From Patescibacteria group bacterium (lineage in GTDB: Bacteria; Patescibacteriota; Patescibacteriia; Patescibacteriales; JAQVLT01): DNA of 64,000 bases. The notes beneath the pieces are model-generated. The model was not told where the DNA came from, did no database searches, and worked only from the letters and a program-made list of their open reading frames with translations. Shown in pieces: positions 42,879 to 63,387 of the stretch. The first letter of the stretch is position 1, and each line of letters starts with the position of its first letter. The stretch covers positions 10,102 through 74,101 of the forward strand of contig JAQVLT010000006.1 of the NCBI GenBank assembly GCA_028704015.1. The letters run 5' to 3'. The position numbers and the translations under genes are program-made.

Positions 42879-42880
42879 TT

Positions 42881-47762: not shown

Positions 47763-47825
47763 GAGTTTTAGATTTTGGGCATTCACCCCTAACCCCTCTG
47801 CCCAAAATCCAAAACAAAAAACAAA
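47763..47825 (+). repeat. conserved hairpin with C-rich loop, copy 2
   Basis: Matches 39831-39896. It is preceded by a second AT-stem/C-rich-loop hairpin at about 47697-47755. Confidence 0.85.
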
Positions 47826-47879
47826 TTTATTATTAAGTAGCCTATCAAAATATTATTTTATTTAAAATATTTTTGAACA

Positions 47880-48005
47880 GCGTATAACACGGCATAATCT
47901 GGTTCCAGAATTTTTCATTAACAGTTAATAATAAGGAGTAAAAAATTCTTACACCCATATTTGCCTCCGCTACGCTACGGCAAACATCAGATATGCCGAT
48001 ACGTT
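47880..48005 (+). other. attC-like site 5
   Basis: GCGTATAAC-AC-GGCATAATCTGG ... CATCAGATATGCC-GATAC-GTT. Its R'' is the reverse complement of GTTATACGC at 40226. Confidence 0.7.
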
Positions 48006-48181
48006 CCGCCGAAATCGCTCGCTTACGCTCGCTCCTTTTCGGCGGAACGGCTTCGGAATCCTTCCTCGTCCCGCTCAGTCGCTCGCTCACGCTCGCGACA
48101 TCGCGGAACTCGGAATACGCGAAATTGCCTTTCGTCCCGAAGCGTCGGGACTCCGGCAACTTCGCTTATCCCGAAGCCGTT
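48003..48181 (+). repeat. 179-bp element copy E6
   Basis: As E1 with one substitution (TTATCCCGAAG). Confidence 0.95.
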
Positions 48182-48219
48182 AGACGAAATTTTTCAAAGC
48201 TACTAACAAAAATGAATAT

Positions 48220-48531
48220 ATGAAAAAAATTATTATCATTTCAACAATTATTATTCTGATTCTAGTAACTATTACTGGATTTATTTATTTTTATATGAAC
48301 CAAGGGTCTGATATTTCCGGGTTTCCAGATTATTATAAAAATTTAGCCAAAGAATGTGAATTAAAGCTAAGTCATGATTGTTGCATGTCTTCAGTAAACA
48401 TAATGACTAATGGAAATTATCAATTAGCTCCTGGCAAAACATTAGCAGAAAGCGGCTGCCCGGAAGGATATCAACCAAATATGTTAAAATGTATTGATAG
48501 CTTCAGATGGTGTGAGCCAATAAAACGGTAG
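48220..48531 (+). CDS. small secreted/membrane-anchored Cys-rich protein (cassette C6)
   Basis: 103 aa with an N-terminal TM helix and 7 Cys in the ectodomain. Confidence 0.55.
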   Translation: MKKIIIISTIIILILVTITGFIYFYMNQGSDISGFPDYYKNLAKECELKLSHDCCMSSVNIMTNGNYQLAPGKTLAESGCPEGYQPNMLKCIDSFRWCEPIKR

Positions 48532-48543
48532 TTTTGAAAAACA

Positions 48544-48595
48544 TCACTTAACACGCAATAAGCGACATTAAAACAATCGCTTATTGCGGGACGTT
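48544..48595 (+). other. attC-like site 6 (compact, no 179-bp element)
   Basis: TCACTTAAC-AC-GCAATAAGCGA-CATTAAAACAA-TCGCTTATTGC-GGGAC-GTT. Confidence 0.75.
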
Positions 48596-48660
48596 ATCGG
48601 AATTGCTCTTTTACAAAATACTTTTTAGGGGCTACATAACACGAAAAAAAGGAGGACAAG

Positions 48661-48903
48661 ATGGCCATCCAAGTCACAAGTTGGCAAGATCTAGCCGAGA
48701 AAACGTTCTTTAGCGGCTTAACTGCCCAAGAAGTTAAGGAAATGGGACTAACTTACAAACCAGGGAAAAGCTTTTCAACCCTGGCACAGACAATCAATAC
48801 TACAGGACCTCGTCCACCTTACAGTTACTGGGCAGTATTAGCCGGAAGGGAGGATGTTCTTCGAGAACATCTCGAAGGCAATCTTACAAACGACCGTGAT
48901 TAA
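48661..48903 (+). CDS. hypothetical protein (cassette C7)
   Basis: 80 aa with a strong SD, AAAGGAGGacaagATG. Confidence 0.55.
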   Translation: MAIQVTSWQDLAEKTFFSGLTAQEVKEMGLTYKPGKSFSTLAQTINTTGPRPPYSYWAVLAGREDVLREHLEGNLTNDRD

Positions 48904-48999
48904 CAGGGCTCCTTGGGGACATAAGCATGTCCCCGCCCCTAAAAAGCATTTTGTATTTTGGCTAATCGCCAAAAGGCTATCGCCTAAAAGAGCAATACA

Positions 49000-49121
49000 T
49001 CCGATAACACGGCATATCCAGCTCGGACTTTTCCGAAAGTCCTCACGCAAATTTTTGTTTCTCTTTACTTTATAATAAATAAAGGTGGAGAAACAAAATC
49101 TTCGGATGATGCCGAAACGTT
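49000..49121 (+). other. attC-like site 7
   Basis: TCCGATAAC-AC-GGCATATCC ... GGATGATGCC-GAAAC-GTT. Its R'' is the reverse complement of GTTATCGGA at 48593. Confidence 0.7.
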
Positions 49122-49315
49122 CCGCCGAAATCGCTCGCTTACGCCTGCCTACCGGCAGGCAGGCTCGCTCTTTTTCGGCGGAACGGCTTCGGAATTCTTC
49201 CTCGTCCCGCTCAGTCGCTCGCAAGCTCGCGACATCGCGTAACTCGGAATAAGCGAAATTGCCTTTCGTCCCGAAGCGTCGGGACTCCGGCAACTTCGCT
49301 TATTCCGAAGCCGTT
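49119..49315 (+). repeat. 197-bp element copy E7 (divergent; carries a nested GC-rich palindrome)
   Basis: Short variant with several substitutions. CCTGCCTACCGGCAGGCAGG (49143-49164) is inserted in the first hairpin loop. Confidence 0.95.
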
Positions 49316-49349
49316 GTACGAAATATCATTCACCTTTAATTCGTAAAAT

Positions 49350-49769
49350 ATGAAAACTGCCTACATATTCGGGCCAATTCATTTATTCGGACAAGATTAT
49401 TTACCCGTCTATAAACATCTCATGAAACTTTGTGAGCCGTATTTTGATAAAGTCATTGGCACTTATCCCGATTTTTGGGATAGTAAAGAAACTCCGCGTG
49501 AATTTTATGACCGCACCTACCAAGTTATTACTAAATGCCAGCTTTTTATCGGCGAGGTCTCAAGTCCTTCGATGGGTGTTGGCATGGAATTTCAAATGGC
49601 GCAGGAAAACAATATCCCATGTATAGCGCTTTGCAAAAAAGGAGTTGAGCCGTCGATGATGATCGCTGGCATACCTTGTACTAAAAAAGTTGTTTATTAT
49701 GAAGACTTCGCCGACTTGTCCGAACAAATGAATGAGATATTAAAAGATACGAGCTGGTTAAACGGGTGA
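49350..49769 (+). CDS. nucleoside 2-deoxyribosyltransferase-like protein (cassette C8)
   Basis: 139 aa with the SMGVGMEFQMA nucleophile-loop pattern. It differs at 2 aa from the 59818-60237 copy. Confidence 0.6.
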   Translation: MKTAYIFGPIHLFGQDYLPVYKHLMKLCEPYFDKVIGTYPDFWDSKETPREFYDRTYQVITKCQLFIGEVSSPSMGVGMEFQMAQENNIPCIALCKKGVEPSMMIAGIPCTKKVVYYEDFADLSEQMNEILKDTSWLNG

Positions 49770-49777
49770 ACGATACA

Positions 49778-49828
49778 TCGTACAACACGCGATATCCAAA
49801 ATTAGAACTTCAAATATGCCGAAACGTT
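49778..49828 (+). other. attC-like site 8 (compact)
   Basis: TCGTACAAC-AC-GCGATATCC-AAAATTAGAAC-TTCAAATATGCC-GAAAC-GTT. Confidence 0.7.
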
Positions 49829-49853
49829 ATCTGAAATTTCACCCCTCCTCACT

Positions 49854-50501
49854 ATGGTAGATAAAAAAACTTTTGAATTAGCAAACAAGTTGTGGGACTA
49901 CCACCATGTTAATCAATCTCTTGAAAAATCTGATTGCATTTTAGTTCTGGGTAGCCATGATTTGAGGGTCGCCGAAAGAGGCGCGGAATTATATCTTGAA
50001 AAATGGGCACCGCTTATTATTTTTTCCGGCGGACTCGGCAACTTAACCAAAGGTATTTGGGGTGAAGCTGAAGCTGACAAGTTCGCAGCTGTTGCTCAAA
50101 AAATGGGTATTCCTAAAAAAAATATTTTGATTGAAAATAAATCAACTAACACCGGTGAAAACATATTATTTACGCAACGGCTGCTACGTGAAAAAAATCT
50201 AGACTTTCAATCTTTCATCGTTGTTCAAAAACCATATATGGAGCGTAGAAGCTATGCAACCTTTAAAAAACATTGGCCAAATAAAAAACTAATCGTAACT
50301 TCCCCCCAAATACCTTTTCTGGAATACTATAACGATGAGATTCCGCTCGAGAAAGTAATTAACATAATGGTCGGCGACTTACAAAGAATTAAAATATACC
50401 CTGATAAAGGCTTTCAGATTTTTCAAGAGATTCCCACGGACGTATGGGAAGCGTACGAGCAACTTGTTGAGTTAGGCTATGATAAACATTTAGTGCGTTG
50501 A
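49854..50501 (+). CDS. YdcF/DUF218 family protein (cassette C9)
   Basis: 215 aa with the CILVLGSHD...FSGG...STNTGEN pattern of DUF218. Confidence 0.7.
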   Translation: MVDKKTFELANKLWDYHHVNQSLEKSDCILVLGSHDLRVAERGAELYLEKWAPLIIFSGGLGNLTKGIWGEAEADKFAAVAQKMGIPKKNILIENKSTNTGENILFTQRLLREKNLDFQSFIVVQKPYMERRSYATFKKHWPNKKLIVTSPQIPFLEYYNDEIPLEKVINIMVGDLQRIKIYPDKGFQIFQEIPTDVWEAYEQLVELGYDKHLVR

Positions 50502-50518
50502 ACCGGAGGGGCAAAACA

Positions 50519-50686
50519 TCACCTAACACCGCGATAAGCGGCTACAGAAAAGTTTCTTAATTAATATAATAATGAGTAAACTTTTCTTCCGGCCCAAATT
50601 TTGCAGATGAATAATAATTATAATAATGTATCTGCAAAACTTCGCTTATTCCGAAGCCGTTAAAACATCGCATACGCCGAAACGTT
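50519..50686 (+). other. attC-like site 9 (compound: two GTT ends, contains the 3' 25 nt of the 179-bp element)
   Basis: TCACCTAAC-AC-CGCGATAAGCGG ... ACTTCGCTTATTCCGAAGCC-GTTAAAAC-ATCGCATACGCC-GAAAC-GTT. Confidence 0.6.
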
Positions 50687-50753
50687 AGCTGAAATATTAT
50701 TCGGGGAGCGCCCCGCAAAAAAATTTATATAATTCTTAATCAATCAAAATAAT

Positions 50754-51383
50754 ATGCAACCTGATTACAACCTTGAATTCGCTCATATTTATGCAGATGA
50801 AGAATTTGGATTAGAACAACTCAAAAGTTTGGAGGTTTTGAAGAAAGTCATTTCAAAATTAAAAAAAGAAAATAAAACTTTCGTTACTTCTATTTTGATT
50901 GACGAATTTCATCCCGTAGTTTTCAGACTCGATGAAAATAAGATTATCGAAGAATTCAAAAAACATGGCATTGTTGTGGATTTTATCGGTTATGAATCAA
51001 AACTTGGAATTATAGCTGATAAAATTCTAAAAGAACTTCCAAAATCAATGTTAAAACTTGAACATTTTCATAAACCGGAGAAAGAAATTTTGATGTTAAA
51101 AGAAAATAATAAAAAAATTGGTTTAAAAGAAGACTTTGCGTTTATGTATAGACATACTTGTGCATTATTAAGTTGCTCTTGGTCACTTTGTAGATTAGGA
51201 ATTTTTAAAATTCCCAAAGATGCCATCAGAAACTTAAGCAATGCAAATTTTGATGCCAAACGAATAATCACGATTCTCCCCGAAAAATATCGTGTAGTTG
51301 AAGATAAAATCATTGAGATAATAAAATCATCAAAATACAAAAAGGCCGTACAAAATATAGAATATGAATTCTTCGAAATTTAA
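50754..51383 (+). CDS. hypothetical protein (cassette C10)
   Basis: 209 aa, no recognised motif. Confidence 0.55.
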   Translation: MQPDYNLEFAHIYADEEFGLEQLKSLEVLKKVISKLKKENKTFVTSILIDEFHPVVFRLDENKIIEEFKKHGIVVDFIGYESKLGIIADKILKELPKSMLKLEHFHKPEKEILMLKENNKKIGLKEDFAFMYRHTCALLSCSWSLCRLGIFKIPKDAIRNLSNANFDAKRIITILPEKYRVVEDKIIEIIKSSKYKKAVQNIEYEFFEI

Positions 51384-51446
51384 CTCAGCGCTCCCTGCGT
51401 CATACTGTCGCTTCGTTTCGCTCTACTCATTCGCCTTACAGGTTCA

Positions 51447-51533
51447 CCACATAACACGGCTTAAACGGAAATTTCTTACAAAAATTAACTAAATGCTCGG
51501 CTAACGCCTCGCACTTCGTTAAGCCGAAACGTT
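51447..51533 (+). other. attC-like site 10
   Basis: CCACATAAC-AC-GGCTTAAACGG ... CGTTAAGCC-GAAAC-GTT. Confidence 0.7.
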
Positions 51534-51557
51534 AGGCTAAATATTTTTTTAAATACT

Positions 51558-52187
51558 ATGAAAACATTAATTCTCGCTTCGAGCGGACAGTTTATAACCA
51601 ATAACAATGTTGATAATTTTTTGCCTAAAAAAATAGCTGATTGCAAAATCGCATATATTATAACCGCTTCAAAAAAGACTTCAGATACCGGATATATAGA
51701 CAAGCATCGACAAAAAATGGACGAATTAAATTTCTACTACGACGAAATAGACATTGCCGGTATGCATGAAAGCGAATTGAAAAAGGCACTTGACGGGCAT
51801 GATATTATTATGGTTGAGGGTGGTAACGCATTTTATTTGTTGAAAGCTATAAGAGAAAGCGGCTTTGATAATGTTATAAAAAAGTTAATTGATAACGGCG
51901 TAGTTTATATTGGCTCAAGCGCCGGTTCTTATGTTGCGTGCCCATCAATAATTGTATCAACCTATACTAATAAACAAAGAGATAGATGCGGTATTACCGA
52001 TTTTACTGGAATGAACTTAGTGCCTTTTTTAATCAAAGCACATTACACGCCAGACATGTTGCCAGACATGAAGGATCTTAGAAAAAACGTGGAATACCCG
52101 TTGCATATTTTAAATGACCAACAAGCACTATTGATTAGAGACGGAGAATTTCAACTCTTAGGTAGCGGTAAAGAAATAATATTATAA
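51558..52187 (+). CDS. peptidase S51 (dipeptidase E-like) (cassette C11)
   Basis: 209 aa with the nucleophile-elbow context VYIGSSAGS. Confidence 0.65.
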   Translation: MKTLILASSGQFITNNNVDNFLPKKIADCKIAYIITASKKTSDTGYIDKHRQKMDELNFYYDEIDIAGMHESELKKALDGHDIIMVEGGNAFYLLKAIRESGFDNVIKKLIDNGVVYIGSSAGSYVACPSIIVSTYTNKQRDRCGITDFTGMNLVPFLIKAHYTPDMLPDMKDLRKNVEYPLHILNDQQALLIRDGEFQLLGSGKEIIL

Positions 52188-52217
52188 GTATATTTATCAC
52201 GACGAAAAAAATTAAAT

Positions 52218-52340
52218 CACACAACACTATATATCTAGTTCAGAAATTTTACATTAATAAAGAGTAAAAATTTATTAATACTATATTTTATATTTTTTCT
52301 CATTTGAATAAGCAAACAAGATAAAAATATCAGACATTTT
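52218..52340 (+). other. terminal, degenerate attC-like half-site
   Basis: TCACACAAC-AC-TATATATCTAG and the shared inner module (TTCAGAAATTTT..AAGAGTAAAAATTT) are present. No matching L'-GAAAC-GTT is found. Confidence 0.45.
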
Positions 52341-52348
52341 TAAATATT

Positions 52349-52381
52349 AAAAAAAGTGTCGCCGGTTAAACCGTGCGACAC
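52349..52381 (-). terminator. intrinsic terminator of the 52388-52606 gene
   Basis: Minus strand reads GTGTCGCACGG-TTTAA-CCGGCGACAC followed by TTTTTTT. Confidence 0.8.
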
Positions 52382-52387
52382 ATTGCT

Positions 52388-52606
52388 TTACTCGCCGAAC
52401 AGACCATCATCATAACCCATGGCAAAGGTCGTCGGCTTTTTAAACACGAGGCTTTCGCCGCCGCTCCCCCTGTCCAACCTCCCTTTTTGTAAGCCTTGGT
52501 TATAAAGCTTGATCCGCCGCTCCCTCTCCCCACCTTCAACACTCATGGGACAGAGAGGATCATGGCCTTGCCCTTTTTCCCAATTGCAATACTTGCATTT
52601 GTCCAT
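52388..52606 (-). CDS. small Cys-containing protein
   Basis: 72 aa with a strong SD (AAGGAGGAT) and its own promoter and terminator. It has two Cys pairs (CKYC...C). Confidence 0.6.
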   Translation of the reverse strand: MDKCKYCNWEKGQGHDPLCPMSVEGGERERRIKLYNQGLQKGRLDRGSGGESLVFKKPTTFAMGYDDGLFGE

Positions 52607-52643
52607 ATACCTATCCTCCTTGGTATTTAAAAAGCATCAAATT

Positions 52644-52672
52644 AACATAACAGAAAATATTCTTACTGTCAA
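52644..52672 (-). promoter_or_regulatory. promoter TTGACA-17-TATGTT
   Basis: Minus strand reads TTGACAgtaagaatattttctgtTATGTT, upstream of the 52606 start. Confidence 0.55.
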
Positions 52673-52839
52673 GCAAACAAGGTAATGTGCGCATACACTC
52701 CAAGATTGATAGCCAGAACATTGTTCAAAAAATATGATAAATATTATATAATACATCGGAAGCGATTAAACACATTAAACAATACAAAAAAATAAATAAC
52801 CATAGCTAAATAAAATTTAATTACAATAAACTCAATTAA

Positions 52840-53523
52840 ATGATCAACGAAATAAAAGATGACCTAAGACGTCGGATGCAAAAAGCGCAAGAAAGTTTGC
52901 AGTCTGACAAAAAAATTGGAGTTAAACATTTGGAGCAACTAGGCGACGAAATAATGTCAGCCTTCGATCGGGCGATCGGCTCGCTTGATTTTAAAATCAA
53001 TATTTTTGAAGAACTGAAAAAAAGACGCGAGGACCTAAAAAATTGGAAAATAAGCTGGCGCAAAACTTTTTTTCCGATCAATTTCAAATATCTTCTTAGC
53101 GCTCCTTTTATTTACGGTATGATTATACCCGGAGTATTTTTTCATATTACACTAGAAATCTATCACCAAGTTTGTTTCCGATTTTACGGTATTCCTCGAG
53201 TAAAACCTGGGGACTATTTTATTTACGATCGACGTCTCCTGCCATATCTCAATTGGTTTGAAAAGCTAAATTGCATATATTGCAGTTACTTTAATAATCT
53301 ATTACAATACGCCGTTGAGATAGCGGGACGAACGGAACGTTTTTGGTGTCCAATTAAATACGCCAAACGAGTAACAAAAACTCATTCTCAGTATAACAAA
53401 TTCGTAGATTATTTGGATGCCAAAAACTTCCGCGAAAAATGGCAAGAATTGAGAGGCTTTTCTGATATTAAGCAGCTCGAAGAAAAAAAATGTGATTTTG
53501 ATAAAAATAAAGAGAAAAAATAA
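52840..53523 (+). CDS. conserved hypothetical membrane protein
   Basis: 227 aa. The central YGIPRVKPGDYFIYDRRLLPYLNWFEKLNCIYCSY...ERFWCPIKYA segment resembles a widespread uncharacterised family. Confidence 0.55.
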   Translation: MINEIKDDLRRRMQKAQESLQSDKKIGVKHLEQLGDEIMSAFDRAIGSLDFKINIFEELKKRREDLKNWKISWRKTFFPINFKYLLSAPFIYGMIIPGVFFHITLEIYHQVCFRFYGIPRVKPGDYFIYDRRLLPYLNWFEKLNCIYCSYFNNLLQYAVEIAGRTERFWCPIKYAKRVTKTHSQYNKFVDYLDAKNFREKWQELRGFSDIKQLEEKKCDFDKNKEKK

Positions 53524-53528
53524 TTTTC

Positions 53529-53846
53529 ATGATAACGCCAATACATCTTATTTTTGATTTCGGAATTTATTCCTTAGCTAATTCAGCCGGCATCATCCAC
53601 GCAAATAGCACTGATCTACTGCTTCTTTTTTCATCCGAGCTGATTGATCTGGATCACTTATTTTCTCACCCAATTTATCATCCGCGCCGCAATCCTTTCA
53701 CAACGCATTTTCTGCATAAAAATTGGAGAATTTTATTAATAATATCTATTTTAATAATTTTCTATCGACCGTTAACATTTTTCGGCATTGGCATTTTATC
53801 CCATTTTCTCTTGGATTATTTGTATAATAAAATTTATAAATTATAA
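53529..53846 (+). CDS. small polytopic membrane protein (possibly YdjM/DUF457-like)
   Basis: 105 aa, 3 TM helices, with several His. The family call is weak. Confidence 0.4.
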   Translation: MITPIHLIFDFGIYSLANSAGIIHANSTDLLLLFSSELIDLDHLFSHPIYHPRRNPFTTHFLHKNWRILLIISILIIFYRPLTFFGIGILSHFLLDYLYNKIYKL

Positions 53847-53872
53847 AAAACTCCGGATGTCCGGAGTTTTTT
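53845..53872. terminator. bidirectional intrinsic terminator
   Basis: AAAAAACTCCGG-ATGT-CCGGAGTTTTTT between convergent genes. Confidence 0.8.
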
Positions 53873-53882
53873 ATAATTTATT

Positions 53883-54455
53883 TTATCTTCCAATTGTTTT
53901 CAATGCCTCTCTAATTCTCTCGCCGCTATCTTTTATTTTTGGGTCAACGAGCTTTAAGGCCTCGCGCGCCTGCGGCATGGAATAACCCAGTGCCATCAAG
54001 GCATCAATCTCATCGGACGCAAAATTTTGCGTCCCTACTCTATTGCCATCTGCCAACTTCCCAATTTTTTCTCTTAATTCCAACACCACTCTTTCGGCGG
54101 TCTTGCGGCCGATGCCGGATACCTTTGTCAGAAGCGCTGAGTCGCCGCGCGCTATTGATTCTTTTATATCTTCAATGCTGGCAACTGACAATACCCCCAG
54201 AGCAGACTTCGGTCCGATGCCGGAAATAGTCAAAAGCAACTCAAAAAATTCTAATCCTTCAATATTTTTAAAACCGTATAAATCAAGCGCATCCTCGCGC
54301 ACTTGCTGATGCGTATAGATTTCCACTTCACTCTTCAAAGCCAAATCAGCAAAAAATGACGGGGCAACAAAAACTTGATAACCGACACCGACGGTTTCAA
54401 TAATAATATAACCTTTGCTTTTATTTATAATTTTACCTTTGAGATAACTGATCAT
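53883..54455 (-). CDS. ruvA: Holliday junction branch-migration complex subunit RuvA
   Basis: 190 aa with N-terminus MISYLKGKI...VGVGYQV and HhH motifs ISGIGPKSA / VSGIGRKTAERV. Confidence 0.9.
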   Translation of the reverse strand: MISYLKGKIINKSKGYIIIETVGVGYQVFVAPSFFADLALKSEVEIYTHQQVREDALDLYGFKNIEGLEFFELLLTISGIGPKSALGVLSVASIEDIKESIARGDSALLTKVSGIGRKTAERVVLELREKIGKLADGNRVGTQNFASDEIDALMALGYSMPQAREALKLVDPKIKDSGERIREALKTIGR

Positions 54456-54496
54456 AAACGTAGTATAAAGTAAAAAGGTAAAAATTAAAAGACTTT

Positions 54497-55846
54497 CTAC
54501 TTTCTACTTTCTACTTTTCGCCTCAGTACGCTGTATTCCGGCACGCTCTCGCCGACCTCCAAAATCACTGTTTGGCCGCCGCTACCGCCGTGCGCTTCGC
54601 TAATTTCCTTATTATTTTTAATATCAACCAATTTTTCCACCCTCATTTTTATTATATCATAAAACGGCCGGACAATCTCAATCTCATCCCCCACTTTTAC
54701 GGTATTGTGTACTTTAACTAAAATTCTGTTACGTGCTATGTGATATGTGCTATGTGAAATAACTTGTCCGCAAAACTCCCATTTACTCGACTGATGTGAC
54801 AGCTTTAGCTCTTGGTCCGCCTTGCCACCCAAAAGAAAGCCGGTAGTATAACCGCGATGCACTAATTTTTTATCCAATTCATTATAAAAATAATCCAAAT
54901 CTTTTTTTGTTATGTGTTTTATGTTATGTGTTACGTGAGAATAAATTCCATTAACCATCGCCTCATAATAAACGCTCTTGGCCCGCCCTTCGATTTTAAA
55001 GCTAGTTACACCGGCGTCAACTAATTTATCCAAATATTTTATCAAACATAAATCTTTTGAATTCAAAATATAACTTCCATGCTCCTCTTCCACAATCTCC
55101 AAGGGCTGATCAAATCTTTTTTCTTCTGCAATAAAATATTCTTTACTTTCTACTTTCAACTTCTTGTCCGCCGAAGCTTTAGCGAAGGCAGATCTACTTT
55201 CAACTCCGTAAGGCCACCGGCATGGCTGTGTGCAATCGCCTAAATTAGCGCTCCGATCATTAAAATATTTAGAAAGAAAACAACGTCCCGAATATGCCAT
55301 ACACATCGCGCCATGGACAAAATATTCCAATTCCATTTCCGGCGCGCGCCGATGAATTTCTTTAATTTCATCAAGCGTCGTTTCCCGGCCCAAGATAATC
55401 CTCTTTACTCCGGCTTTCCGCCAAAATTTAACCGCCTGCCAATTTGTGCAATTCGCCTGCGTGGAAAGATGAATTTCGCAAGCCGGCCATATTTTTTTTG
55501 CCAAAACTAAAACTCCAGGGTCAGAAATAATTAAGGCGTCAACTTTTATCTTTTTAAGCTCTTTTAAATAAGGCGGCAATTTATCAAGATGTTTGTTGTG
55601 CGCAAAAATATTTATTGTCACATAAACTTTCTTGCCTAATTCATGGGCATATTTCACCGCCTCTTTCACTCCGGCTAAATCAAAATCATTAATCCGCACA
55701 CGCAAAGAAAAATCAGGAATGCCCAGATAAATCGCGTCGGCGCCAAAAGCGAAAGCGGTTTTCATTTTTTCCAAATTCCCTGCTGGTGCGAGTAACTCAA
55801 TTTTTTTTATTTTTAATTTTTTCATAATAACCTCGTTAAAAAACAC
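54497..55846 (-). CDS. U32 family peptidase
   Basis: N-terminal ELLAPAGN..AFAFGADAIYLG pattern. The likely start is Met 55825. It contains two in-frame GTTAYGT heptad arrays. Confidence 0.8.
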   Translation of the reverse strand: MFFNEVIMKKLKIKKIELLAPAGNLEKMKTAFAFGADAIYLGIPDFSLRVRINDFDLAGVKEAVKYAHELGKKVYVTINIFAHNKHLDKLPPYLKELKKIKVDALIISDPGVLVLAKKIWPACEIHLSTQANCTNWQAVKFWRKAGVKRIILGRETTLDEIKEIHRRAPEMELEYFVHGAMCMAYSGRCFLSKYFNDRSANLGDCTQPCRWPYGVESRSAFAKASADKKLKVESKEYFIAEEKRFDQPLEIVEEEHGSYILNSKDLCLIKYLDKLVDAGVTSFKIEGRAKSVYYEAMVNGIYSHVTHNIKHITKKDLDYFYNELDKKLVHRGYTTGFLLGGKADQELKLSHQSSKWEFCGQVISHSTYHIARNRILVKVHNTVKVGDEIEIVRPFYDIIKMRVEKLVDIKNNKEISEAHGGSGGQTVILEVGESVPEYSVLRRKVESRK

Positions 55847-55921
55847 TCAAATCTACAAATGCATACAAATCTACAAATACTAATAAATTCGTAGATTTGA
55901 AAATATTTGCAAATTTGAGTG

Positions 55922-56305
55922 TTATTCGCCTAATTCTTCTCTAATTTTTTCTATTATTTCTTCGGTGGTAAAATGCGCTTTAACCAAATAATTATTCGCG
56001 CCAAATTCCATGGCTTTTTTAATATCAGTTTCTTCACCCAGATTTGAGAGCATTATTACCGGCACTTTCTTGGCGTTTTCGTCTTCTAGGGAACGTATTT
56101 TTTGCAGAACTTCAAAACCATTAATACTGGGAAGCAAAATGTCTAATAAAATTAAATCAAATTTTTCTTTGTCTACTGCCAATAACGCTTTCTCTCCGTC
56201 TTCCGCTTCTGTCACTACAAATCCTTCTTTGGCTAATCTTTTAAAAATTATTTCTCGCAAAAATGAGTCGTCCTCCACTAATAATATTTTTTTGTCTTTA
56301 GCCAT
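55922..56305 (-). CDS. single-domain response regulator
   Basis: 127 aa with the VEDD...DLILLDILLP receiver pattern. Confidence 0.85.
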   Translation of the reverse strand: MAKDKKILLVEDDSFLREIIFKRLAKEGFVVTEAEDGEKALLAVDKEKFDLILLDILLPSINGFEVLQKIRSLEDENAKKVPVIMLSNLGEETDIKKAMEFGANNYLVKAHFTTEEIIEKIREELGE

Positions 56306-56315
56306 ATTTTTAAAA

Positions 56316-58160
56316 TTATTTACTTAATGATATATCAAAAATAAATTCCGATCCCTTGCCTTCCTCGCTTGAAAAAGAAATGCTGCCGCCGTGTTTTATA
56401 ATAATATTTTTAGCGATAAACAACCCCAAGCCAGTACCCTCGGTTTCCATGCGCAAAACCTTATCGCTGCGGAAAAATTTAGAAAACAATTTTTCTTGAT
56501 CTTTCGGCGGAATGCCGATGCCGCTGTCCTTAATACTTACATAAAACCTATCACCCGCCGTCTTAAAAGTCAACTCAATTTTACCGCCAAGCGGCGTATA
56601 TTTAACAGCGTTATCAAGAAGATTCTGCATCACCATGCCGATTTTATCTTTATCAATATACACCCTGGGCAATTCTTGATTTTTTTCTATAATTAATTTT
56701 ATTTTCTTTTTCTTAATTGTCGCCTCCAAATTTTCAACCGCAATTTCCAAAATATCCGCAAATTTATAATTATTAAAATTATAGCCGAAACGGCCTTCTT
56801 CAATACGGGAAACATTCAATAAATCATCAACCAATTTTATCATTCTTTCATTGCTTTTGTAACCTTTTTTCAAAAGATCTATTTGTTCAGCATCAATTTT
56901 CCCTTTATTTTCCTTAATTACCAAATCAATAGACCATTTAATAGCGGCAAGCGGGGTGCGCAATTGATGCGCGGCCACAGTGATAAATTCCGATTTCATT
57001 TTATCAATGGTTTTTTCCCGAGTCAAATCATAAAATATTTTCATAACACCCAGATATTCGTCATCATCGCCTCGCACTTCGGAAGTAATCACCTTATAAT
57101 AGCGCGCTTCATTTTGAATTTTTAAATCCATCTCTTCAATTCCCAAATTATTATTGTTTTCCTCAACTGATTTGGCATAATTAAAATCGGCGCTAATTAT
57201 AGTTTTGAATTTGTCCAAAGAAAAATCATTTCCATCTAATACTTTTTTGCCAATATCAGAAAATTTAACTCCTAAAATTTCTTTACTGGCGTGATTGTAA
57301 ATCGCCAATTTGTTTTCATTGTCCAAAACAATAATCGGATCGGAAAAATTGGAAATAATCGCCAAGGTTTTGTATTTTTCATCTTCGGATTTTTCTTTTT
57401 CTTTTTCCAGCGCTTTGATCGTGCGATTTAATTCTGAATCGCGCTTGACTAGAAGTTTAGCAGTCCTATCCAGTTGTTTTAATTCATGAAGGCGCTTCTC
57501 CGTCTCGGCATTTAGCTTTTGCGTCTGTTCTCCCAGAAGCTCCTCGCGCCGAAAAAGCATATTGATTCCATAGCCGCTAAGAATTGCCACGATAATAAAG
57601 GCCGTGGAAATAGTTATAGATTTGGCCAAACCAACTGATAAAACTAAATAATCAACCGTCGGAACATTAAAGCGCCCGGCGTGGGGAATTATTTTATAAT
57701 ATTCCGCCAGTACCAAACCATTAACTAACAAAGAGGAGAGAATACTAGTGGACAGGGATCCTCTCAGCCCAAAAATAAGGGCGGCGGAAACAATAGAAAA
57801 AAAATAAAAAAAATGTATTATACTCTCCGCGCCGCCGGTATAATGCATAATCAAGGTAAGCGCAATTAATTCTGACCCAACTTGCCACCAGCTTAAAATT
57901 TCCAAATTTATCGCCGATTTATCCTTCTTTATATACTGCAAATACAAGTAAAAAATAAAATTTATTGCAATATAAAATAAATAAAGGATCGCCATTGTGA
58001 CCAGCGGAAAATTGACGCTGGAATAACTAAAAAACTTAGTATACAACCCAAGCACAAGAATAGCTGAGGCATAAAACCACCTGGCCTTGATAATCAAACC
58101 ATTAAATTCTATTTTTCGTTCAATCACTCTAATATTTTCCATAATAAAATTATAACACAA
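56316..58160 (-). CDS. sensor histidine kinase (polytopic N-terminus, PAS-like, HisKA, HATPase_c)
   Basis: H-box AAHQLRTPL, N-box LLDNAVKYT, G-boxes DSGIGI and GTGLGL. The likely start is Met 58142. Confidence 0.9.
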   Translation of the reverse strand: MCYNFIMENIRVIERKIEFNGLIIKARWFYASAILVLGLYTKFFSYSSVNFPLVTMAILYLFYIAINFIFYLYLQYIKKDKSAINLEILSWWQVGSELIALTLIMHYTGGAESIIHFFYFFSIVSAALIFGLRGSLSTSILSSLLVNGLVLAEYYKIIPHAGRFNVPTVDYLVLSVGLAKSITISTAFIIVAILSGYGINMLFRREELLGEQTQKLNAETEKRLHELKQLDRTAKLLVKRDSELNRTIKALEKEKEKSEDEKYKTLAIISNFSDPIIVLDNENKLAIYNHASKEILGVKFSDIGKKVLDGNDFSLDKFKTIISADFNYAKSVEENNNNLGIEEMDLKIQNEARYYKVITSEVRGDDDEYLGVMKIFYDLTREKTIDKMKSEFITVAAHQLRTPLAAIKWSIDLVIKENKGKIDAEQIDLLKKGYKSNERMIKLVDDLLNVSRIEEGRFGYNFNNYKFADILEIAVENLEATIKKKKIKLIIEKNQELPRVYIDKDKIGMVMQNLLDNAVKYTPLGGKIELTFKTAGDRFYVSIKDSGIGIPPKDQEKLFSKFFRSDKVLRMETEGTGLGLFIAKNIIIKHGGSISFSSEEGKGSEFIFDISLSK

Positions 58161-58226
58161 ATTATCATAATATAAAAATCCGCCTCAAATACTCAAGACG
58201 GATTTTTATTTAAATTTTTCTTTAAA

Positions 58227-59654
58227 TTAATTCTCAAAAAATGCTTTATAGCCAAGATAGGCGCAATAGAGATCTGCCTTGGAAGCGATTTCCAGCGGCG
58301 CGTGCATATTAAAAAGCGGCACGCCCATATCAACGATGTCCATATCACGGTTAGCCATAAACATCGCAATCGTTCCGCCACCGCCCAAATCAACCTTCGC
58401 TCCCAAATTACCGCTAACTTGATAAATAATATTTTTATTTTTATTTAAAATGTCTTTTATTTCTCTAACAAATTTAGCTGATGCCTCGGAAGTGTGAACT
58501 TTACCGCCCGCTCCGGTATATTTTTCCATTACTGCGCCAGCACCCAATCGCGGAGCACTGCGTAAATCAAATACATCTTTGTAGTCCGGATCAACTCCGG
58601 CGCAGACATCCGCTGAGATTGCTTTGGCATTTGAAAACGCGGCATAAACATTTTTTATTTTGCCTTCTTCACCGGATAGCTCCAGGAGATTGGCAATAAA
58701 ATTCTCTATAAAAATTGATTGCGCGCCGGTTGCGCCTTCGGAGCCGATTTCCTCGCGATCAATCCAAACGCATATTTTTGTAATCTCATTATTTTTTGAA
58801 TCTGCCAGGGCTTTAATAGCGGCAAATGAACAGATGCTATCGTCATGGCCATAGGCGCAAATTAATGATCGATCAAAACCCAAATCACGCGCTTTTTCAC
58901 AAGGCACGGCCTCAAGTTCGGCGCTCGCGAAATCATCTTCTTTGATGCCATATTTATTAAATAAATATTCAAGTACCGCTAATTTAACTTTTTCTTTGAC
59001 ATTTTTTTCATTCACTGGGATTGAACCAATGAGCAGGTTGAGATCTTCGCCCTGCACTTCCCGTTTTCTTATCTCTCCGCCCGGACCGGTCGGCCGATCA
59101 AGATGAGGAAGCAAATCAGTTATCATAAAAACCGGATCATTTATATCTTCACCAATATTTATTTCCATTTCTTTTCCGCCGGCAAGATAAACCACGCCAT
59201 GCAAAGCCAAGGCGATCGTCGGCCATTGGTATTTCTTGATACCACCGTAGTAATGAGTTTTAAAAAATGCTAAATTTTCTTCTTCATAAAGCGGAGTCAC
59301 TTTTAAATCCAGATGCGGCGAATCAATATGCGACATAATAAATCTAAAACCGTTGCTTATTTTTTCTTTGCCAATGGTGGCTAAAATCAAACTGCGATTA
59401 CGATGAGCGTAATACACCTTGTCGCCGAATTTTAAATTTTTTACTTCGGCAATATTCTTGAAACCATTTTGCTTAGCAATCAAAATTCCGGCGCGCGTCG
59501 CCTCTCTCTCGGTCTTTGCTTGATTTAAAAATTCCTTATACCCCTCGGCAAAAGAAAAAGCTTCTTTCTTTGTTTTATCATCCCAAACCTCCCAAATATT
59601 TTTTTTCTTCAAGGTTAATTGTTCCTCCAATTTTTTGTAATTTTTTTTAGCCAT
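58227..59654 (-). CDS. M18 family aminopeptidase
   Basis: 475 aa with SHIDSPHLDLK and the typical M18 length and pattern. Confidence 0.8.
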   Translation of the reverse strand: MAKKNYKKLEEQLTLKKKNIWEVWDDKTKKEAFSFAEGYKEFLNQAKTEREATRAGILIAKQNGFKNIAEVKNLKFGDKVYYAHRNRSLILATIGKEKISNGFRFIMSHIDSPHLDLKVTPLYEEENLAFFKTHYYGGIKKYQWPTIALALHGVVYLAGGKEMEINIGEDINDPVFMITDLLPHLDRPTGPGGEIRKREVQGEDLNLLIGSIPVNEKNVKEKVKLAVLEYLFNKYGIKEDDFASAELEAVPCEKARDLGFDRSLICAYGHDDSICSFAAIKALADSKNNEITKICVWIDREEIGSEGATGAQSIFIENFIANLLELSGEEGKIKNVYAAFSNAKAISADVCAGVDPDYKDVFDLRSAPRLGAGAVMEKYTGAGGKVHTSEASAKFVREIKDILNKNKNIIYQVSGNLGAKVDLGGGGTIAMFMANRDMDIVDMGVPLFNMHAPLEIASKADLYCAYLGYKAFFEN

Positions 59655-59680
59655 ATTTATTATTTTTAATTCGTAATTAT

Positions 59681-60274
59681 AACGTATCCAAATATCTGAA
59701 GTTTGTTGGAGTGAAACGAAAGCAAATTTGGGTTGAAAAAGTTTTTCACTCCTTAATTTAAAAATCTAATAAGGCAAAACTTTTGAGCCAGCTATTTGGT
59801 GTTGTACGATGTATCGTTCACCCGTTTAACCAGCTCGTATCTTTTAATATCTCATTCATTTGTTCGGACAAGTCGGCGAAGTCTTCATAATAAACAACTT
59901 TTTTAGTACAAGGTATGCCAGCGATCATCATCGACGGCTCAACTCCTTTTTTGCAAAGCGCTATACATGGGATATTGTTTTCCTGCGCCATTTGAAATTC
60001 CATGCCAACGCCCATTGAAGGACTCGAGACCTCGCCGATAAAAAGCTGGCATTTAGTAATAACTTGGTAGGTACGGTCATAAAATTCACGCGGAGTTTCC
60101 TTGCTATCCCAAAAATCGGGGTAAGTACCAATGACTTTATCAAAATACGGCTCACAAAGTTTCATGAGCTGTTTATAGACGGGCAAATAATCTTGCCCGA
60201 ACAAATGAATTGGTCCAAATACGTAGGCAATTTTCATAATTTACGGATTAAGGGTGAATGATATTTCGTACAAC
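59681..60274 (-). mobile_element. orphan integron-type cassette (NDT-like gene plus its own attC-like site) inserted between core genes
   Basis: Minus strand reads G|TTGTACGAA...CDS...TCGTACAAC-AC-CAAATAGCTGG...CTTCAGATATTTGG-ATAC-GTT. Homology to array cassette C8 begins exactly at GTT. Confidence 0.7.
59818..60237 (-). CDS. nucleoside 2-deoxyribosyltransferase-like protein (inverted duplicate of 49350-49769)
   Basis: 139 aa, differing from 49350-49769 at 2 residues. The 3' half of the gene is identical at the DNA level by eye. Confidence 0.6.
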   Translation of the reverse strand: MKIAYVFGPIHLFGQDYLPVYKQLMKLCEPYFDKVIGTYPDFWDSKETPREFYDRTYQVITKCQLFIGEVSSPSMGVGMEFQMAQENNIPCIALCKKGVEPSMMIAGIPCTKKVVYYEDFADLSEQMNEILKDTSWLNG

Positions 60275-60285
60275 TCTGAATTATT

Positions 60286-61170
60286 TTACCAACTCCCGCT
60301 AGATCCTCCGCCCCCCGAACCGCCACCGCCAAAACCACCAAACCCTCCACCGCCAAAACCACTGCCGCCTCGCCCACCGCCAATCCACCATGGGATAGGT
60401 CCGCCAGCTTTGTGCTTAGCATAACTCCTAGATACCACAAAATCAAACAACAAGCCAAGCGGTATTAAAATGACGATGGAAGCAATGCCGAAATATAAAA
60501 AACCTTTAATAACACCAATAATTACACCGATTATCCCACCTATAACACCACCGGCCCACCAAGACTTGCTTCTACCTAATATACTAGCTAACCACAAAAT
60601 AACAAATATTACAACCCAAAATATAAATTCCCAATTACTGTTACTCAAACCACTTGCTAGTTTTTCTTCTGGCACATATTCGCCCTTAGTCGCGGCAATA
60701 ATTTTATCAACGGCGCCGTCAATCCCGCCGTAATAATTATTTTCGCGAAATGCCGGCTTCATTATGTCATTAATAATCCAATAGCTCTGCGCGTCAGTTA
60801 AAGCGCCTTCCAGGCCATAGCCGACTTCAATGCGCATCTGCCGATCATTAATAGCGACCAAAAGCAAAACGCCATTATCTTTATTTTTCTTGCCAATTCC
60901 CCAATCCTTAAATAATTCCACGGCAAAATTTTCAATAGTGTCGCCGTCCAGGCTCGCAATTGTCACAATAGAAATTTCATTACTGGTATCTTTCTCAAAT
61001 TGTACTAATTTATTTTCCAGCGCCTGTTTTTGGTCAGCCGCCAACACTCCGGCAAAATCATTAGCATAACCAGTCGGCTGGCCAGGATTGGTATAAGCAA
61101 AAACGGGAAAAACAAGAAAACAAGAAAACAAGAAAACAAGAAAACAATTTTTTAGTAAACTTTTTTTCAT
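60286..61170 (-). CDS. TPM-domain protein with Gly-rich C-terminus
   Basis: 294 aa with signal peptide, NDFAGVL...QFEKDTSNEISIVTI (TPM), C-terminal TMs, and a GGGSGFGGGGFGG tail. AACAAGAA x4 lies in the signal-peptide codons. Confidence 0.8.
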   Translation of the reverse strand: MKKSLLKNCFLVFLFSCFLVFPVFAYTNPGQPTGYANDFAGVLAADQKQALENKLVQFEKDTSNEISIVTIASLDGDTIENFAVELFKDWGIGKKNKDNGVLLLVAINDRQMRIEVGYGLEGALTDAQSYWIINDIMKPAFRENNYYGGIDGAVDKIIAATKGEYVPEEKLASGLSNSNWEFIFWVVIFVILWLASILGRSKSWWAGGVIGGIIGVIIGVIKGFLYFGIASIVILIPLGLLFDFVVSRSYAKHKAGGPIPWWIGGGRGGSGFGGGGFGGFGGGGSGGGGSSGSW

Positions 61171-61192
61171 TCTTAAATCTTAATTCCTAATT

Positions 61193-61235
61193 CCCTGCCT
61201 GCCGCCTGCCTGTCCGGTAGGCAGGGCAGGCAGGT
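61193..61235. repeat. GC-rich palindrome family member (double-length)
   Basis: CCCTGCCTGCCGCCTGCCTGTCCGGTAGGCAGGGCAGGCAGGT. Confidence 0.85.
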
Positions 61236-61240
61236 TAAAT

Positions 61241-61810
61241 CTAAAATTTCACCGCTGGTGCATTTTCCGCTCCGGCAGCCGCTTCAAAATATGCTTTTTC
61301 ATTAAAGCCAAACCAACCAGCAAGAATATTCGCCGGCACGCGTTTGATCATAGTATTGAATGCCTGAACTTGATCATTAAATCTTTTTCTTTCTACACTG
61401 ACTCTGTTTTCCGTGCCTTCCAATTGCGCCATTAAAGTCTGGACAGTATCAACCGATTTTAATTGCGGATAATTTTCCATAACCACTAGCAATCTTGACA
61501 ATGCGCCCTCAACTTCTGTCGCCGCTTCTGCTTTTTCATTTACAGTCGCAGCGCCGGCATAACGAGTACGCGCTTCGGCTAAATCTCCAAAAACTTTAGT
61601 TTCCTGCGCCATTGCGCCCTTTACTGATTCTACTAAATTTGGAATTAAATCAAAACGCCTTTGATATTGCGTTTCTACCTGCGCCCATTGACCGGTAACT
61701 GCCTGATCAGCGGCAACCATTTTGTTATAAACGCTCCAAGCGTAGATGCCCACGACAACAACGAGGGCAAAAATGATAATAAGAGCTTTTTTCATAAAAC
61801 TTTTTCGCAT
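61241..61810 (-). CDS. lemA: LemA family protein
   Basis: 189 aa with N-terminal TM and the QYQRRFDLIPNLV and ENRVSVERKRFN motifs. Confidence 0.9.
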   Translation of the reverse strand: MRKSFMKKALIIIFALVVVVGIYAWSVYNKMVAADQAVTGQWAQVETQYQRRFDLIPNLVESVKGAMAQETKVFGDLAEARTRYAGAATVNEKAEAATEVEGALSRLLVVMENYPQLKSVDTVQTLMAQLEGTENRVSVERKRFNDQVQAFNTMIKRVPANILAGWFGFNEKAYFEAAAGAENAPAVKF

Positions 61811-62238: not shown

Positions 62239-63387
62239 TTAATTGATAACCTGCCTGCCGGTAGGCAAGGTTTTTAGTTGAAAATTAACTTCCCTACCTC
62301 TCGCTTTCGGCGCATGATAACCAGCGAGGAGACAAGCGGACTTTAAAATTTCTTCTTCGCTTTTATTCTCACTTAATTTTAAATTTTCTATATTTAGCTC
62401 CTTCGGAATTTGTAATTTAAAATTTGATAATTCATTTAAAACCTGCCTGCCCTGCCTGCCGGACAGGCAGGCGGTAGGCAAGGTTGAAAATTGAAAATTG
62501 AAAATTCTAACAACAGTCAGCGGTCCTACTTCGTTCTTTAATTCTACCACAATATCTCCCTTTTTTGCCAATTTTTCTAATGCTTCATTATCTCTTTTAT
62601 CTCTACCCACTATAATTAATATATATTTTTTATCCATCTTTGCCCAAAAAGGCCGTCCATATTTAAGCAACTCTACATCTTTAGGCCCACACTCCGGCCA
62701 ATTCTTTATCATCTCTCGTAATTTATCACAAAATTGCGCTTCAGTTAGCAAACATCCGCCAGCAGGAGCAGGATATTTTTTGATGCCAAATTTTTTTGCG
62801 AGTTTCATCTGCCTTTCCCGGCCGCGGCCTTCAATGTCCAATAATTTTTTTCTGTTTATCAAGCCTATTTTTTCATAAATTGTCTCTGGCAATAATTTCG
62901 CGGAAAGTGGACGCAAAACTTCCACCCCGGCTAATTTTTCCACTCGTCCAAGCGACTGTTTATTTTGCGACATCGGACGCTGGCCCAAAACTTCACCCGT
63001 AGCAATAACCTCTCCCGCCCCCTCTCTCCTGCCTCTCCCCGACTCGCTATCGCTCGTCACCCCTCTCCTAATTAGGAGAGGGGTCGGGGGAGAGGTGAGG
63101 ACGGACGCTTTTTTTATCATGAACGCATGGCAATCAATACAAGGATTTAGACATTTGCCATGTCCACACTTGGGATTTTTTACTATTTCCAAAAGTTCTT
63201 TACTAATATTAATAACTTCCAATGGAACTTTAAGTTCTTCAACCGCTTCACGCGCTTTATTGGCGTTAAAAAAATTACTCTCAAAAGCAACCGCGGTCAC
63301 ATCAATTCCTTGCGCTTGTAAAATTTTTACCGCGAGCATTGAGTCCAATCCGCCGGATAATAAAACTAGAGCTTTAATCTTTTTCAT
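62239..63387 (-). CDS. PP-loop ATP pyrophosphatase (ThiI/MnmA-like tRNA thiolation-type) carrying three in-frame repeat inserts
   Basis: N-terminal SGGLDS PP-loop and CIDCH Cys pair. Inserts lie at 62248-62272, 62441-62485 and 63009-63100. Confidence 0.6.
   Translation of the reverse strand: MKKIKALVLLSGGLDSMLAVKILQAQGIDVTAVAFESNFFNANKAREAVEELKVPLEVINISKELLEIVKNPKCGHGKCLNPCIDCHAFMIKKASVLTSPPTPLLIRRGVTSDSESGRGRREGAGEVIATGEVLGQRPMSQNKQSLGRVEKLAGVEVLRPLSAKLLPETIYEKIGLINRKKLLDIEGRGRERQMKLAKKFGIKKYPAPAGGCLLTEAQFCDKLREMIKNWPECGPKDVELLKYGRPFWAKMDKKYILIIVGRDKRDNEALEKLAKKGDIVVELKNEVGPLTVVRIFNFQFSTLPTACLSGRQGRQVLNELSNFKLQIPKELNIENLKLSENKSEEEILKSACLLAGYHAPKARGREVNFQLKTLPTGRQVIN

Follow-up and report, generated by a model that had tools for sequence, protein, structure and literature searches.

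An orphan gene cassette of an integron-like system between two core genes of a Patescibacteria group bacterium

A 64,000-nucleotide stretch of contig JAQVLT010000006.1 (positions 10,102 to 74,101 of the forward strand; GenBank assembly GCA_028704015.1) from a Patescibacteria group bacterium, hereafter the window, contains an array of gene cassettes and, on the opposite strand and outside that array, a lone gene between a TPM-domain gene and an M18 aminopeptidase gene that has a counterpart in one array cassette, C8. This locus raises the question of whether the lone gene belongs to a mobile cassette, how it came to lie between its present neighbors, and how it is related to C8. The orphan is a complete, self-contained cassette of an integron-like system whose array and recombinase occupy 31–54 kb of the window. 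We consider it probable that a mobile cassette was inserted here at a secondary GTT site, that the orphan is an old allele beside C8, and that its 3′ part was later subject to gene conversion.

The repeat finder lists a sole long inverted repeat in the window, 476 nt in length and 96% complementary, in which 59799–60274 (minus strand) matches 49313–49788 (plus strand). Pairwise alignment of the orphan with C8 (MAFFT), a check proposed in the original prediction, returns the same limits, which are also those of the predicted match: the homology starts at GTTGTACGAA, with unrelated sequences to its left (CCGAAGCC| in the array, AATTCAGA| at the orphan), and ends after TCGTACAAC-AC, such that the breakpoints fall at G|TT and at the AAC-AC of the R″ box. 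The predicted contrast between scattered synonymous differences in the 5′ half and identity in the 3′ half is likewise present. The 19 differences are confined to the first 265 nt: the 36-nt leader contains 3 of them, 13 are synonymous, and 3 alter an amino acid (T3I, I6V, and H23Q). The last 211 nt are identical; an identical run of that length has p ~2e-4 in a permutation test that places 19 differences at random.

On the minus strand the orphan starts with G|TTGTACGAAATATCATTCACC, the left arm of an inverted repeat, followed by the 36-nt leader and an open reading frame (ORF) whose stop codon falls within the right arm (Table 1); the G at 60274 is part of the target rather than of the cassette. 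The distinct attC-like core predicted here (CCAAATAGCTGG ... CAGATATTTGG-ATAC-GTT) is present at 59681–59799, with L″ at 59788–59799, L′ at 59688–59698, and a variable region of 89 nt between them, and the right end of the cassette reads L′, ATAC, G|TTATAA. The L″/L′ hairpin is formed by both strands of this attC. When the ends are joined as in an excised circle, for which the predicted junction is GGATACG|TTGTACGAAAT, the bottom strand folds into a single long imperfect hairpin (dG −29.8 kcal/mol; z −7.3 vs. shuffles). Against an expectation of 0.4, the window has seven copies of the R″-arm motif ACATCNNNNAACA: six on the plus strand, all within the array, and a single minus-strand copy at the orphan. 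An attC scan of the window finds no second solo cassette in the 64 kb: the orphan is the only site outside the array that scores at least 10, and the nearest array attC lies ~8 kb away on the opposite strand. An Rfam scan of 48000–61500 returned no family, just sub-threshold hairpin matches.

The same cassette was found in seven groundwater metagenome contigs (L086 and L099–L104) by metagenome scan and exact-protein look-ups, at ~92% DNA identity. The attC of the orphan, with ~5–6% differences, also stands behind the ORF in L099–L102 and L086, and the short contigs L103 and L104 end inside an attC of this type. In contigs long enough to include it, the start of the homology to the orphan is G|TTGTACG, and the end is GGATAC-G|TT; limits identical to those of the orphan are found between other neighbors in L099–L102, and the right-hand limit alone in L086, which begins inside the ORF. 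The left neighbors are of two kinds, namely the attC of another cassette (L099, L100, and L102–L104) and an attI-like flank (L101), and the right neighbors are three different cassette starts (shared by L099, L101, and L102; in L100; and in L086). Because the same attC follows the ORF in these metagenome copies, we regard the orphan attC as the native attC of the cassette family. In other contigs the same attC is cut, after L″ in L082 and L106 and inside the loop in L105. A reading of the truncated attCs of L082, L105, and L084 as two separated arms whose loop encloses a second gene was rejected, as no distal L′ exists. An exact-protein look-up of the orphan and C8 proteins in the gene-position index returned no record.

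The insertion site lies 11 nt from the TPM stop codon (60286–60288 to the G at 60274) and, measured from the GTT (59681–59683), 26 nt from the M18 start codon (ATG, 59654), close to the predicted 11 and ~27 nt. The junctions read AGA-G|TTGTACG (left) and GGATAC-G|TTATAA (right). Inspection of this site in relatives, the second check proposed beforehand, covered the spacer in three related loci, all with ≤75% protein identity. In L001 (M18 64% identical) the order LemA-TPM-M18 is found with 24 nt from the TPM stop to the M18 ATG; in L107 (TPM 75% and M18 74% identical) the TPM-M18 spacer is 59 nt and gene-free; and L109/L110 keep LemA-X-M18-histidine kinase synteny. A scan of genome contigs with the M18 protein gave one useful relative (L001), the rest being Clostridia and others at ≤51% identity. 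Removal of exactly 60273–59683 yields TAA-AATAATTCAGAGTTATAATTACG...ATG, which is colinear with L001 and L107 across the junction; the restored spacer reads AGAG|TTATAA, and the cassette-less reconstruction ATTcAGAgTTATAA matches ATTaAGAaTTATAA of L107 at 12/14 positions across the junction. The empty sites of the relatives and the identical limits elsewhere bear out an insertion at a GTT in the TPM-M18 spacer, co-oriented with the operon. From its sense orientation in the LemA-TPM-M18 row, the orphan gene could be expressed by read-through.

Table 1. Features of the orphan cassette, its target, and its counterparts, with positions in the window.
Feature	Position	Strand	Description or basis
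Complete orphan cassette, 591 nt	59683..60273	-	TT of left G|TT to G of right G|TT; limits seen elsewhere, spacer restored on removal
Left inverted-repeat arm (R′ box + extension), GTTGTACGAAATATCATTCACC	60253..60274	-	Pairs with 59801–59822 in modeled circular junction
Cassette ORF, 139 aa	59818..60237	-	Candidate NDT-superfamily (DNPH1/MilB-like) nucleotide N-glycosidase; ORF list
Right arm, GGTGAACGATACATCGTACAAC	59801..59822	-	R″ box GTACAAC (59801–59807) + extension; contains motif ACATCNNNNAACA
Orphan attC, 127 nt	59681..59807	-	R″ GTACAAC, spacer A, L″, variable loop, L′, spacer ATAC, R′ G|TT (59683|59682)
211-nt tract identical to 49578–49788	59799..60009	-	Putative gene-conversion tract; permutation test, outgroup comparison
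Array cassette C8	49314..49826	+	Same gene (ORF 49350–49769), same R arms, short degenerate attC 49780–49828
Tyrosine recombinase, 272 aa	31079..31897	-	Presumed catalyst; divergent from array; without IntI-specific additional domain; only such gene in window
TPM-domain gene	60286..61170	-	Upstream neighbor in LemA-TPM-M18-histidine kinase row; Pfam PF04536 1e-44; 75% identical to L107 orthologue
M18 aminopeptidase gene	58227..59654	-	Downstream neighbor; Pfam PF02127 2e-84; orthologues adjoin TPM in L001, L107
Left half of target spacer, AATAATTCAGA	60275..60285	-	TPM stop to junction G
Right half of target spacer, TTATAATTACGAATTAAAAATAATAAAT	59655..59682	-	Up to M18 start codon; attC-spacer-M18 junction reproduced in Logan assembly

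The original prediction took the orphan for a copy of C8 that had moved, with its attC core exchanged at R″; comparison with the metagenome copies as outgroup points elsewhere. In the 5′ 265 nt, the orphan and C8 differ at 19 positions, the orphan and L099 at 24, and C8 and L099 at 23; in the 3′ 211 nt the corresponding counts are 0, 17, and 17. At the 19 positions that distinguish the orphan from C8, the outgroup has the base of the orphan at 8, that of C8 at 9, and neither base at 2. Because the 5′ halves are about equidistant among the orphan, C8, and the metagenome copies, and because the attCs differ, the orphan is not a copy of C8; the two appear to be old, separately evolving alleles from the cassette pool that are under purifying selection, ~7% diverged and mostly at synonymous positions. 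The identity of the 3′ 211 nt is most simply explained by recent homogenization through gene conversion, the two inverted copies lying 10 kb from each other; the original prediction had already called the pattern gene-conversion-like, and the permutation test and the outgroup counts suggest the same. The tract would stop at R″ because the homology ends there. Inversion by a crossover between the inverted copies, which would swap their attCs, was rejected: a DUF218 cassette follows C8 and M18 follows the orphan, as in relatives.

The odd attC is that of C8 and not, as first thought, that of the orphan, whose core is near-identical in L086 and L099–L102 and in the partly sequenced L103/L104. The C8 attC (~49 nt) is not alignable with the orphan type and has no match in any fetched locus. 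Its arms, CGCGATATCC ... AAATATGCCG-AAAC, resemble the array's common type in C4, C5, and C7 (CGGCATATCC ... GATATGCCG-AAAC), its loop is just ~14 nt, two arm positions are unpaired, and its fold is no better than that of shuffles; the sequence for tracing its donor cassette is CGCGATATCCAAAATTAGAACTTCAAATATGCCG. Array copy C8 thus carries a non-native attC, which most likely arose by a deletion joining its R″ to the L″-L′-R′ of a downstream attC. Unspecific deletion or decay is at least as likely a source of the C8 R″ junction as recombinase action, because the same attC is cut elsewhere (L082/L106 and L105), without a distal L′; with a single junction to go by, neither recombinase nor deletion is preferred, and the predicted exchange of attC cores at R″ has a low probability. 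C8 supplies one candidate hybrid attC and bears weakly on attC replacement.

For these reasons it is unlikely that the orphan is a direct transposed copy of C8 whose attC core was swapped at R″ by the recombinase during or after the move. Such a swap would fit the end of the homology within AAC-AC at R″. In canonical integrons the top strand carries the AAC cleavage triplet in R″, so that a recombinase product at the C8 junction would have come from a top-strand reaction; top-strand recombination is 1e3–1e4 times rarer in those integrons, though a recombinase without the IntI domain might discriminate strands less well. Set against this are 5′ halves that are 7.2% different, about as far apart as either is from the metagenome copies, a native attC in the orphan that would place any swap on the C8 side, the cuts of the same attC at other points in other genomes, and the fact that the one such junction belongs to an attC that folds no better than shuffles.

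The array of the window consists of co-oriented cassettes separated by hairpin sites on the plus strand, from 32008 to ~53.8 kb, and the recombinase gene adjoins it and diverges from it, a layout also found in L111 and L115. The sites follow a common plan: A(A/T)ACATC-nnnn-AAC (extended R″), A, L″ (~11 nt), a variable loop, L′ (~11 nt), A(A/T)AC, and G|TT-nnnn-GA(A/C)AT (extended R′). Across 13 sites from the window and other contigs, picked by a complementarity scan, AAC and GTT are invariant, the L″/L′ helix has compensatory changes in 8/12 pairs, and 89.7% of its cells are paired, vs. 72.8% in shuffles (0/500 as high) and 23–34% in slid controls; as in integrons, the sites are imperfect R″/L″/L′/R′ hairpins with AAC...GTT, in which structure is kept above sequence. 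In integrons, extrahelical bases make recombination selective for the folded bottom strand; a bulged base in L′ is present in C1, C7, and L115b only (3/13 L helices), and a 2-nt mismatch is conserved within the extended R stem. Cassettes begin with a sequence that can pair with their own R″ arm: all four positions of the variable core agree (4/4) in 8/12 array cassettes, and 17–22/24 positions do so in seven cassettes, which share one and the same 2-nt mismatch (GAAAT opposite ACATC). Because these inverted repeats extend the pairing of the cassette end with its own R″, the crossover lies inside a long stem, unlike that of classical attC, which is near the base. The limits at G|TT and the occurrence of the same cassette in several contexts (L086 and L099–L104 vs. 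the orphan) are further features in common with integrons.

The recombinase aligns with VchIntIA (2a3v) in two pieces that skip ~35 residues (chain positions ~211–244), and with archaeal XerA as well, in one piece. It scores 216 bits against TIGR02249 (cut-off 265), in two stretches, and 218.9 against XerA_Arch (cut-off 220), and no second recombinase is present in the window. Because the enzyme lacks the IntI-specific additional domain and falls below the TIGR02249 cut-off, we label the platform integron-like; judged from sequence, it is not a canonical member of the family. The recombinase family comprises >5600 homologues of ~273 aa, with 68–86% identity in Patescibacteria, and the homologues in L111 (86%; 4958–5776) and L115 (73%; 8001–8822) likewise stand opposite arrays with attC sites of this type; integron-like platforms that rely on an Xer-like enzyme appear to be widespread in bacteria of the candidate phyla radiation (CPR). 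The pdif modules of Acinetobacter plasmids have 28-bp double-stranded XerC/XerD sites in alternating orientation. The platform resembles them and Xer-dependent elements (IMEX) in its Xer-like recombinase of ~270 aa without the IntI domain and in modules bounded by inverted recombinase-binding sequences; a pdif/Xer-module reading was rejected, the sites of the window being co-oriented hairpins of 46–196 nt with variable loops and not 28-bp duplex sites.

Several features of the array stand on their own. An ORF-less, GC-rich cassette of ~176 nt starts at 32008, 32831, 35346, 36056, 40052, 48003, and 49119 (the last with a 20-nt insertion); it has its own 75-nt attC, ACATCGCGGAAC-T-CGGAATACGCGAA...TTCGCTTATTCCG-AAGCC-G|TT, and alternates with gene cassettes, and its L′ end is also found at 50638–50662. 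This cassette might act as a promoter or insulator or serve as a preferred landing site. Viral contigs contain neither this module nor the R″/L″ junction of the orphan's cassette. Cassette-specific inverted repeats of ~20–30 nt occur, for example, at 32184–32213/32611–32640, 36230/39963, 40226/47888, and 49313/49786; a search for terminal inverted repeats that demanded an exact core yielded mainly the ORF-less module and overlooked imperfect repeats, and anchored comparisons were used in its place. The stretch 40226–47888 forms a 7.7-kb multi-gene unit with matched cassette ends (19/24), unusually large for an integron-type cassette. A 64-nt element (…GGGCATTCACCCCTAACCCCTCTGCCCAAAATC…) at 39826–39889 and 47758–47821 is 94% identical in two cassettes and is also found in the L100 upstream region.

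In the history that we propose for the orphan, an excised circular cassette with a folded attC would have been recombined by the resident 272-aa tyrosine recombinase with a non-att GTT, in a reaction of the attC × secondary-site (‘attG’) type with the crossover between G and TT. The insertion would have placed a promoterless gene in sense orientation in the LemA-TPM-M18 row, available for read-through. Gene conversion would later have homogenized the 3′ 211 nt of the orphan and C8, and C8 has ended up with a short, degenerate attC whose arms are of the common array type, the orphan keeping its native one. A number of points weigh against this history. The recombinase might be a housekeeping Xer enzyme, its family being so large and conserved, and the action of a 272-aa enzyme without the IntI-specific domain on folded attC or secondary sites is presumed. 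The orphan departs from the family consensus at one position of L″, and its R′ as it now stands (GTTATAA) has lost the match to R″; the cassette may be immobilized. The nearest relatives with an empty site are just 64–75% identical in protein, and a promoter/terminator scan gave nothing decisive. Finally, the source is a contig of a metagenome-assembled genome (MAG), in which a 211-nt exact inverted repeat could mislead an assembler; the TPM-side junction is without an independent assembly, and the Logan contig that covers the other junction (L081) may stem from the same reads.

It is nevertheless very improbable that the two copies, or their identical 3′ halves, are an artefact of mis-joined strain variants or of wrong repeat resolution. 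The MAG source would allow for such an error, the gene-position index lacks exact matches to the orphan and C8 proteins, and the Logan assembly breaks at the repeat. That assembly (SRR22315503), the work of a second assembler, reproduces attC-spacer-M18 exactly, however, and L081 starts 30 nt inside the repeat, fitting a k=31 graph that branches there: it stops k−1 bases inside the repeat, as a true branching repeat would have it. The 5′ half of the orphan also has variants of its own, both flanks fit the synteny of relatives, and either inversion isomer would still need a cassette between TPM and M18.

Lower still we place the possibility that the mobile unit is the 476-nt segment itself, a transposon-like element or miniature inverted-repeat transposable element (MITE) with 22-nt terminal inverted repeats (GTTGTACGA...TCGTACAAC) that landed beside a pre-existing attC-like sequence. 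The segment shared by the copies in the window is indeed bounded exactly by the inverted repeat, but there is no target-site duplication in the flanks (AATTCAGA and ACCAAATA), no transposase is present, and end-to-end complementarity is general to the cassettes of the array, where it extends R′/R″ pairing. The co-mobile unit moreover reaches past the right repeat, the attC traveling with the gene up to GGATAC-G and being complete in L086 and L099–L102 with three right neighbors. Least credible is an ancestral gene between TPM and M18 that was lost in the relatives examined, for which just three related spacer loci leave room and against which stand the platform-type attC with precise G|TT limits, the colinear spacer that removal restores, and the same cassette in unrelated contexts elsewhere.

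Isolated integron cassettes at genomic attG or secondary sites are known as SALIN, and in canonical integrons off-att insertion, the G(W)T target, expression from a resident promoter, and later excision have already been described (Loot et al., bioRxiv 10.1101/2022.09.11.507474). Like SALIN, the orphan comprises one coding sequence and one attC, far from the integrase and other att sites; it sits at a G(W)T triplet of ordinary double-stranded genomic DNA, placed for resident-promoter expression, with an empty site that can be reconstructed and spacers that are empty in L001 and L107. Unlike SALIN, its host belongs to the Patescibacteria (CPR), the resident recombinase lacks the IntI-specific domain, and the attC has long extended R arms; by comparison with SALIN, insertion of the orphan would have been integrase-dependent. 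As with aadB at secondary sites in RSF1010 and pRAY (10.1101/2022.09.11.507474), a single complete cassette lies downstream of a resident promoter and outside an integron; RSF1010 and pRAY, however, have plasmid-borne class 1 resistance cassettes, whereas the orphan is chromosomal, lies in a conserved gene row, and carries an N-glycosidase as cargo.

The platform as a whole is comparable to sedentary chromosomal integrons (Vibrio, with VCR attC) and to archaeal integrons (Ghaly et al., 2022, PMC9668308) in its recombinase gene divergent from a co-oriented array, hairpin-conserved attC, G|TT crossover, 5′ ends complementary to their own R″, and a cassette found in several arrays. Canonical and archaeal IntI carry the IntI-specific additional domain, around patch III, which the recombinase of the window lacks; the window also differs in R′/R″ complementarity of ~20 nt rather than 7, with a conserved 2-nt mismatch, in bulges in just 3/13 L helices, and in the alternation of the 176-nt ORF-less cassette with gene cassettes. 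Full-text literature searches turned up no description of Patescibacteria integron cassettes or attC arrays. The orphan is a new example of known off-array insertion, and the system in which it occurs is a variant not described before. The predicted insertion at a secondary GTT site is upheld; the movement itself was already known for integrons, off-array cassette insertion having been seen in E. coli and V. cholerae experiments and in IntegronFinder genome surveys.

What the locus adds is a natural instance of this outcome in a genome of the Patescibacteria, one for which the two junctions, the empty site, and other contexts of the cassette can all be recovered. The cassettes of this CPR platform form a shared mobile pool, found in several groundwater metagenomes, and can become part of core operons in very small genomes. 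The orphan/C8 pair would make a clean example of gene conversion between cassette copies at different loci, and the orphan attC and the target AGAGTTATAA make a defined substrate pair for asking whether an Xer-like enzyme performs integron-type single-strand recombination. A bolder proposal, which we consider improbable, is that the CPR recombinase can cut either strand of an attC hairpin, at G|TT in R′ and at AA|C in R″, that gene plus R arms and attC core reassort as modules, and that C8 is an R″ × R″ product. If true, cutting of either strand would be a natural route for attC replacement and cassette genesis, and Patescibacteria at large would have an integron-like system that is run by a housekeeping-type Xer enzyme and has cassettes in common with DPANN archaea.

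For the cargo protein, 223 homologues were detected at 60–94% identity, in Patescibacteria and in Woesearchaeota/Nanoarchaeota. The protein has no match in PADLOC, nor in Pfam or NCBIfam at their default thresholds; PF05014 is reached at E=0.012 and 16.2 bits, below the curated cut-off of 28.8, and a relative (P0065) reaches the gathering score. The profile of the cargo family matches DNPH1 (E=4e-5) over the EVSxPSxGVGxE motif, and an AlphaFold2 model (pLDDT 85.5) matches DNPH1 and the CMP/hmCMP N-glycosidases MilB and BcmB in Foldseek (TM 0.74–0.81). The family profile and the model fold agree with the NDT-like assignment made at the outset, and we infer a nucleotide N-glycosidase that may act in salvage or in the removal of modified nucleotides.

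The same N-glycosidase gene, at 70–83% amino acid identity (contigs L089–L092 and L098; proteins P0018, P0074, and P0091), is present on contigs attributed to Woesearchaeota/Nanoarchaeota, where the copies are flanked by the inverted repeats GTTCCGCCCC / GGGGCGGAAC and TTATGTGC / GCACATAA; this hints at a cassette pool common to CPR bacteria and DPANN archaea. In L082 (704–730 / 1170–1183), and likewise in L106, the 4-nt R′ core at the cassette start (GTTATCG) is unmatched to its own R″ (GTACAAC) and the remaining inverted repeat matches, which may mean that the crossover sometimes falls elsewhere than at G|TT or that a different core was substituted. The left flank in L101 (150–175; TTTCGCATAATAACGA|GTT) resembles 31950–31972 of the window beside the recombinase gene (TTTCGCATAATATACAACGA), a candidate attI.

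Outside the array, a tandem heptamer (TAATTGT, ~17 copies) at 27819–27951 reaches the start codon in the neighbor region of the minus-strand ORF 27923–29329. GC-rich palindromes (CCTGCCTGCCGGCAGGCAGG and variants) lie between core genes at 29428–29468, 29843–29883, 61193–61251, 62251–62291, and 62425–62483, and are probably terminators or REP-like elements. The intergenic repeats GTTATGTG/GTTACGTG, at 3816–3852, 54721–54757, and 54902–54938 of the window and at 840–880 of L107, in its TPM-M18 spacer, may represent a lineage-specific regulatory motif.

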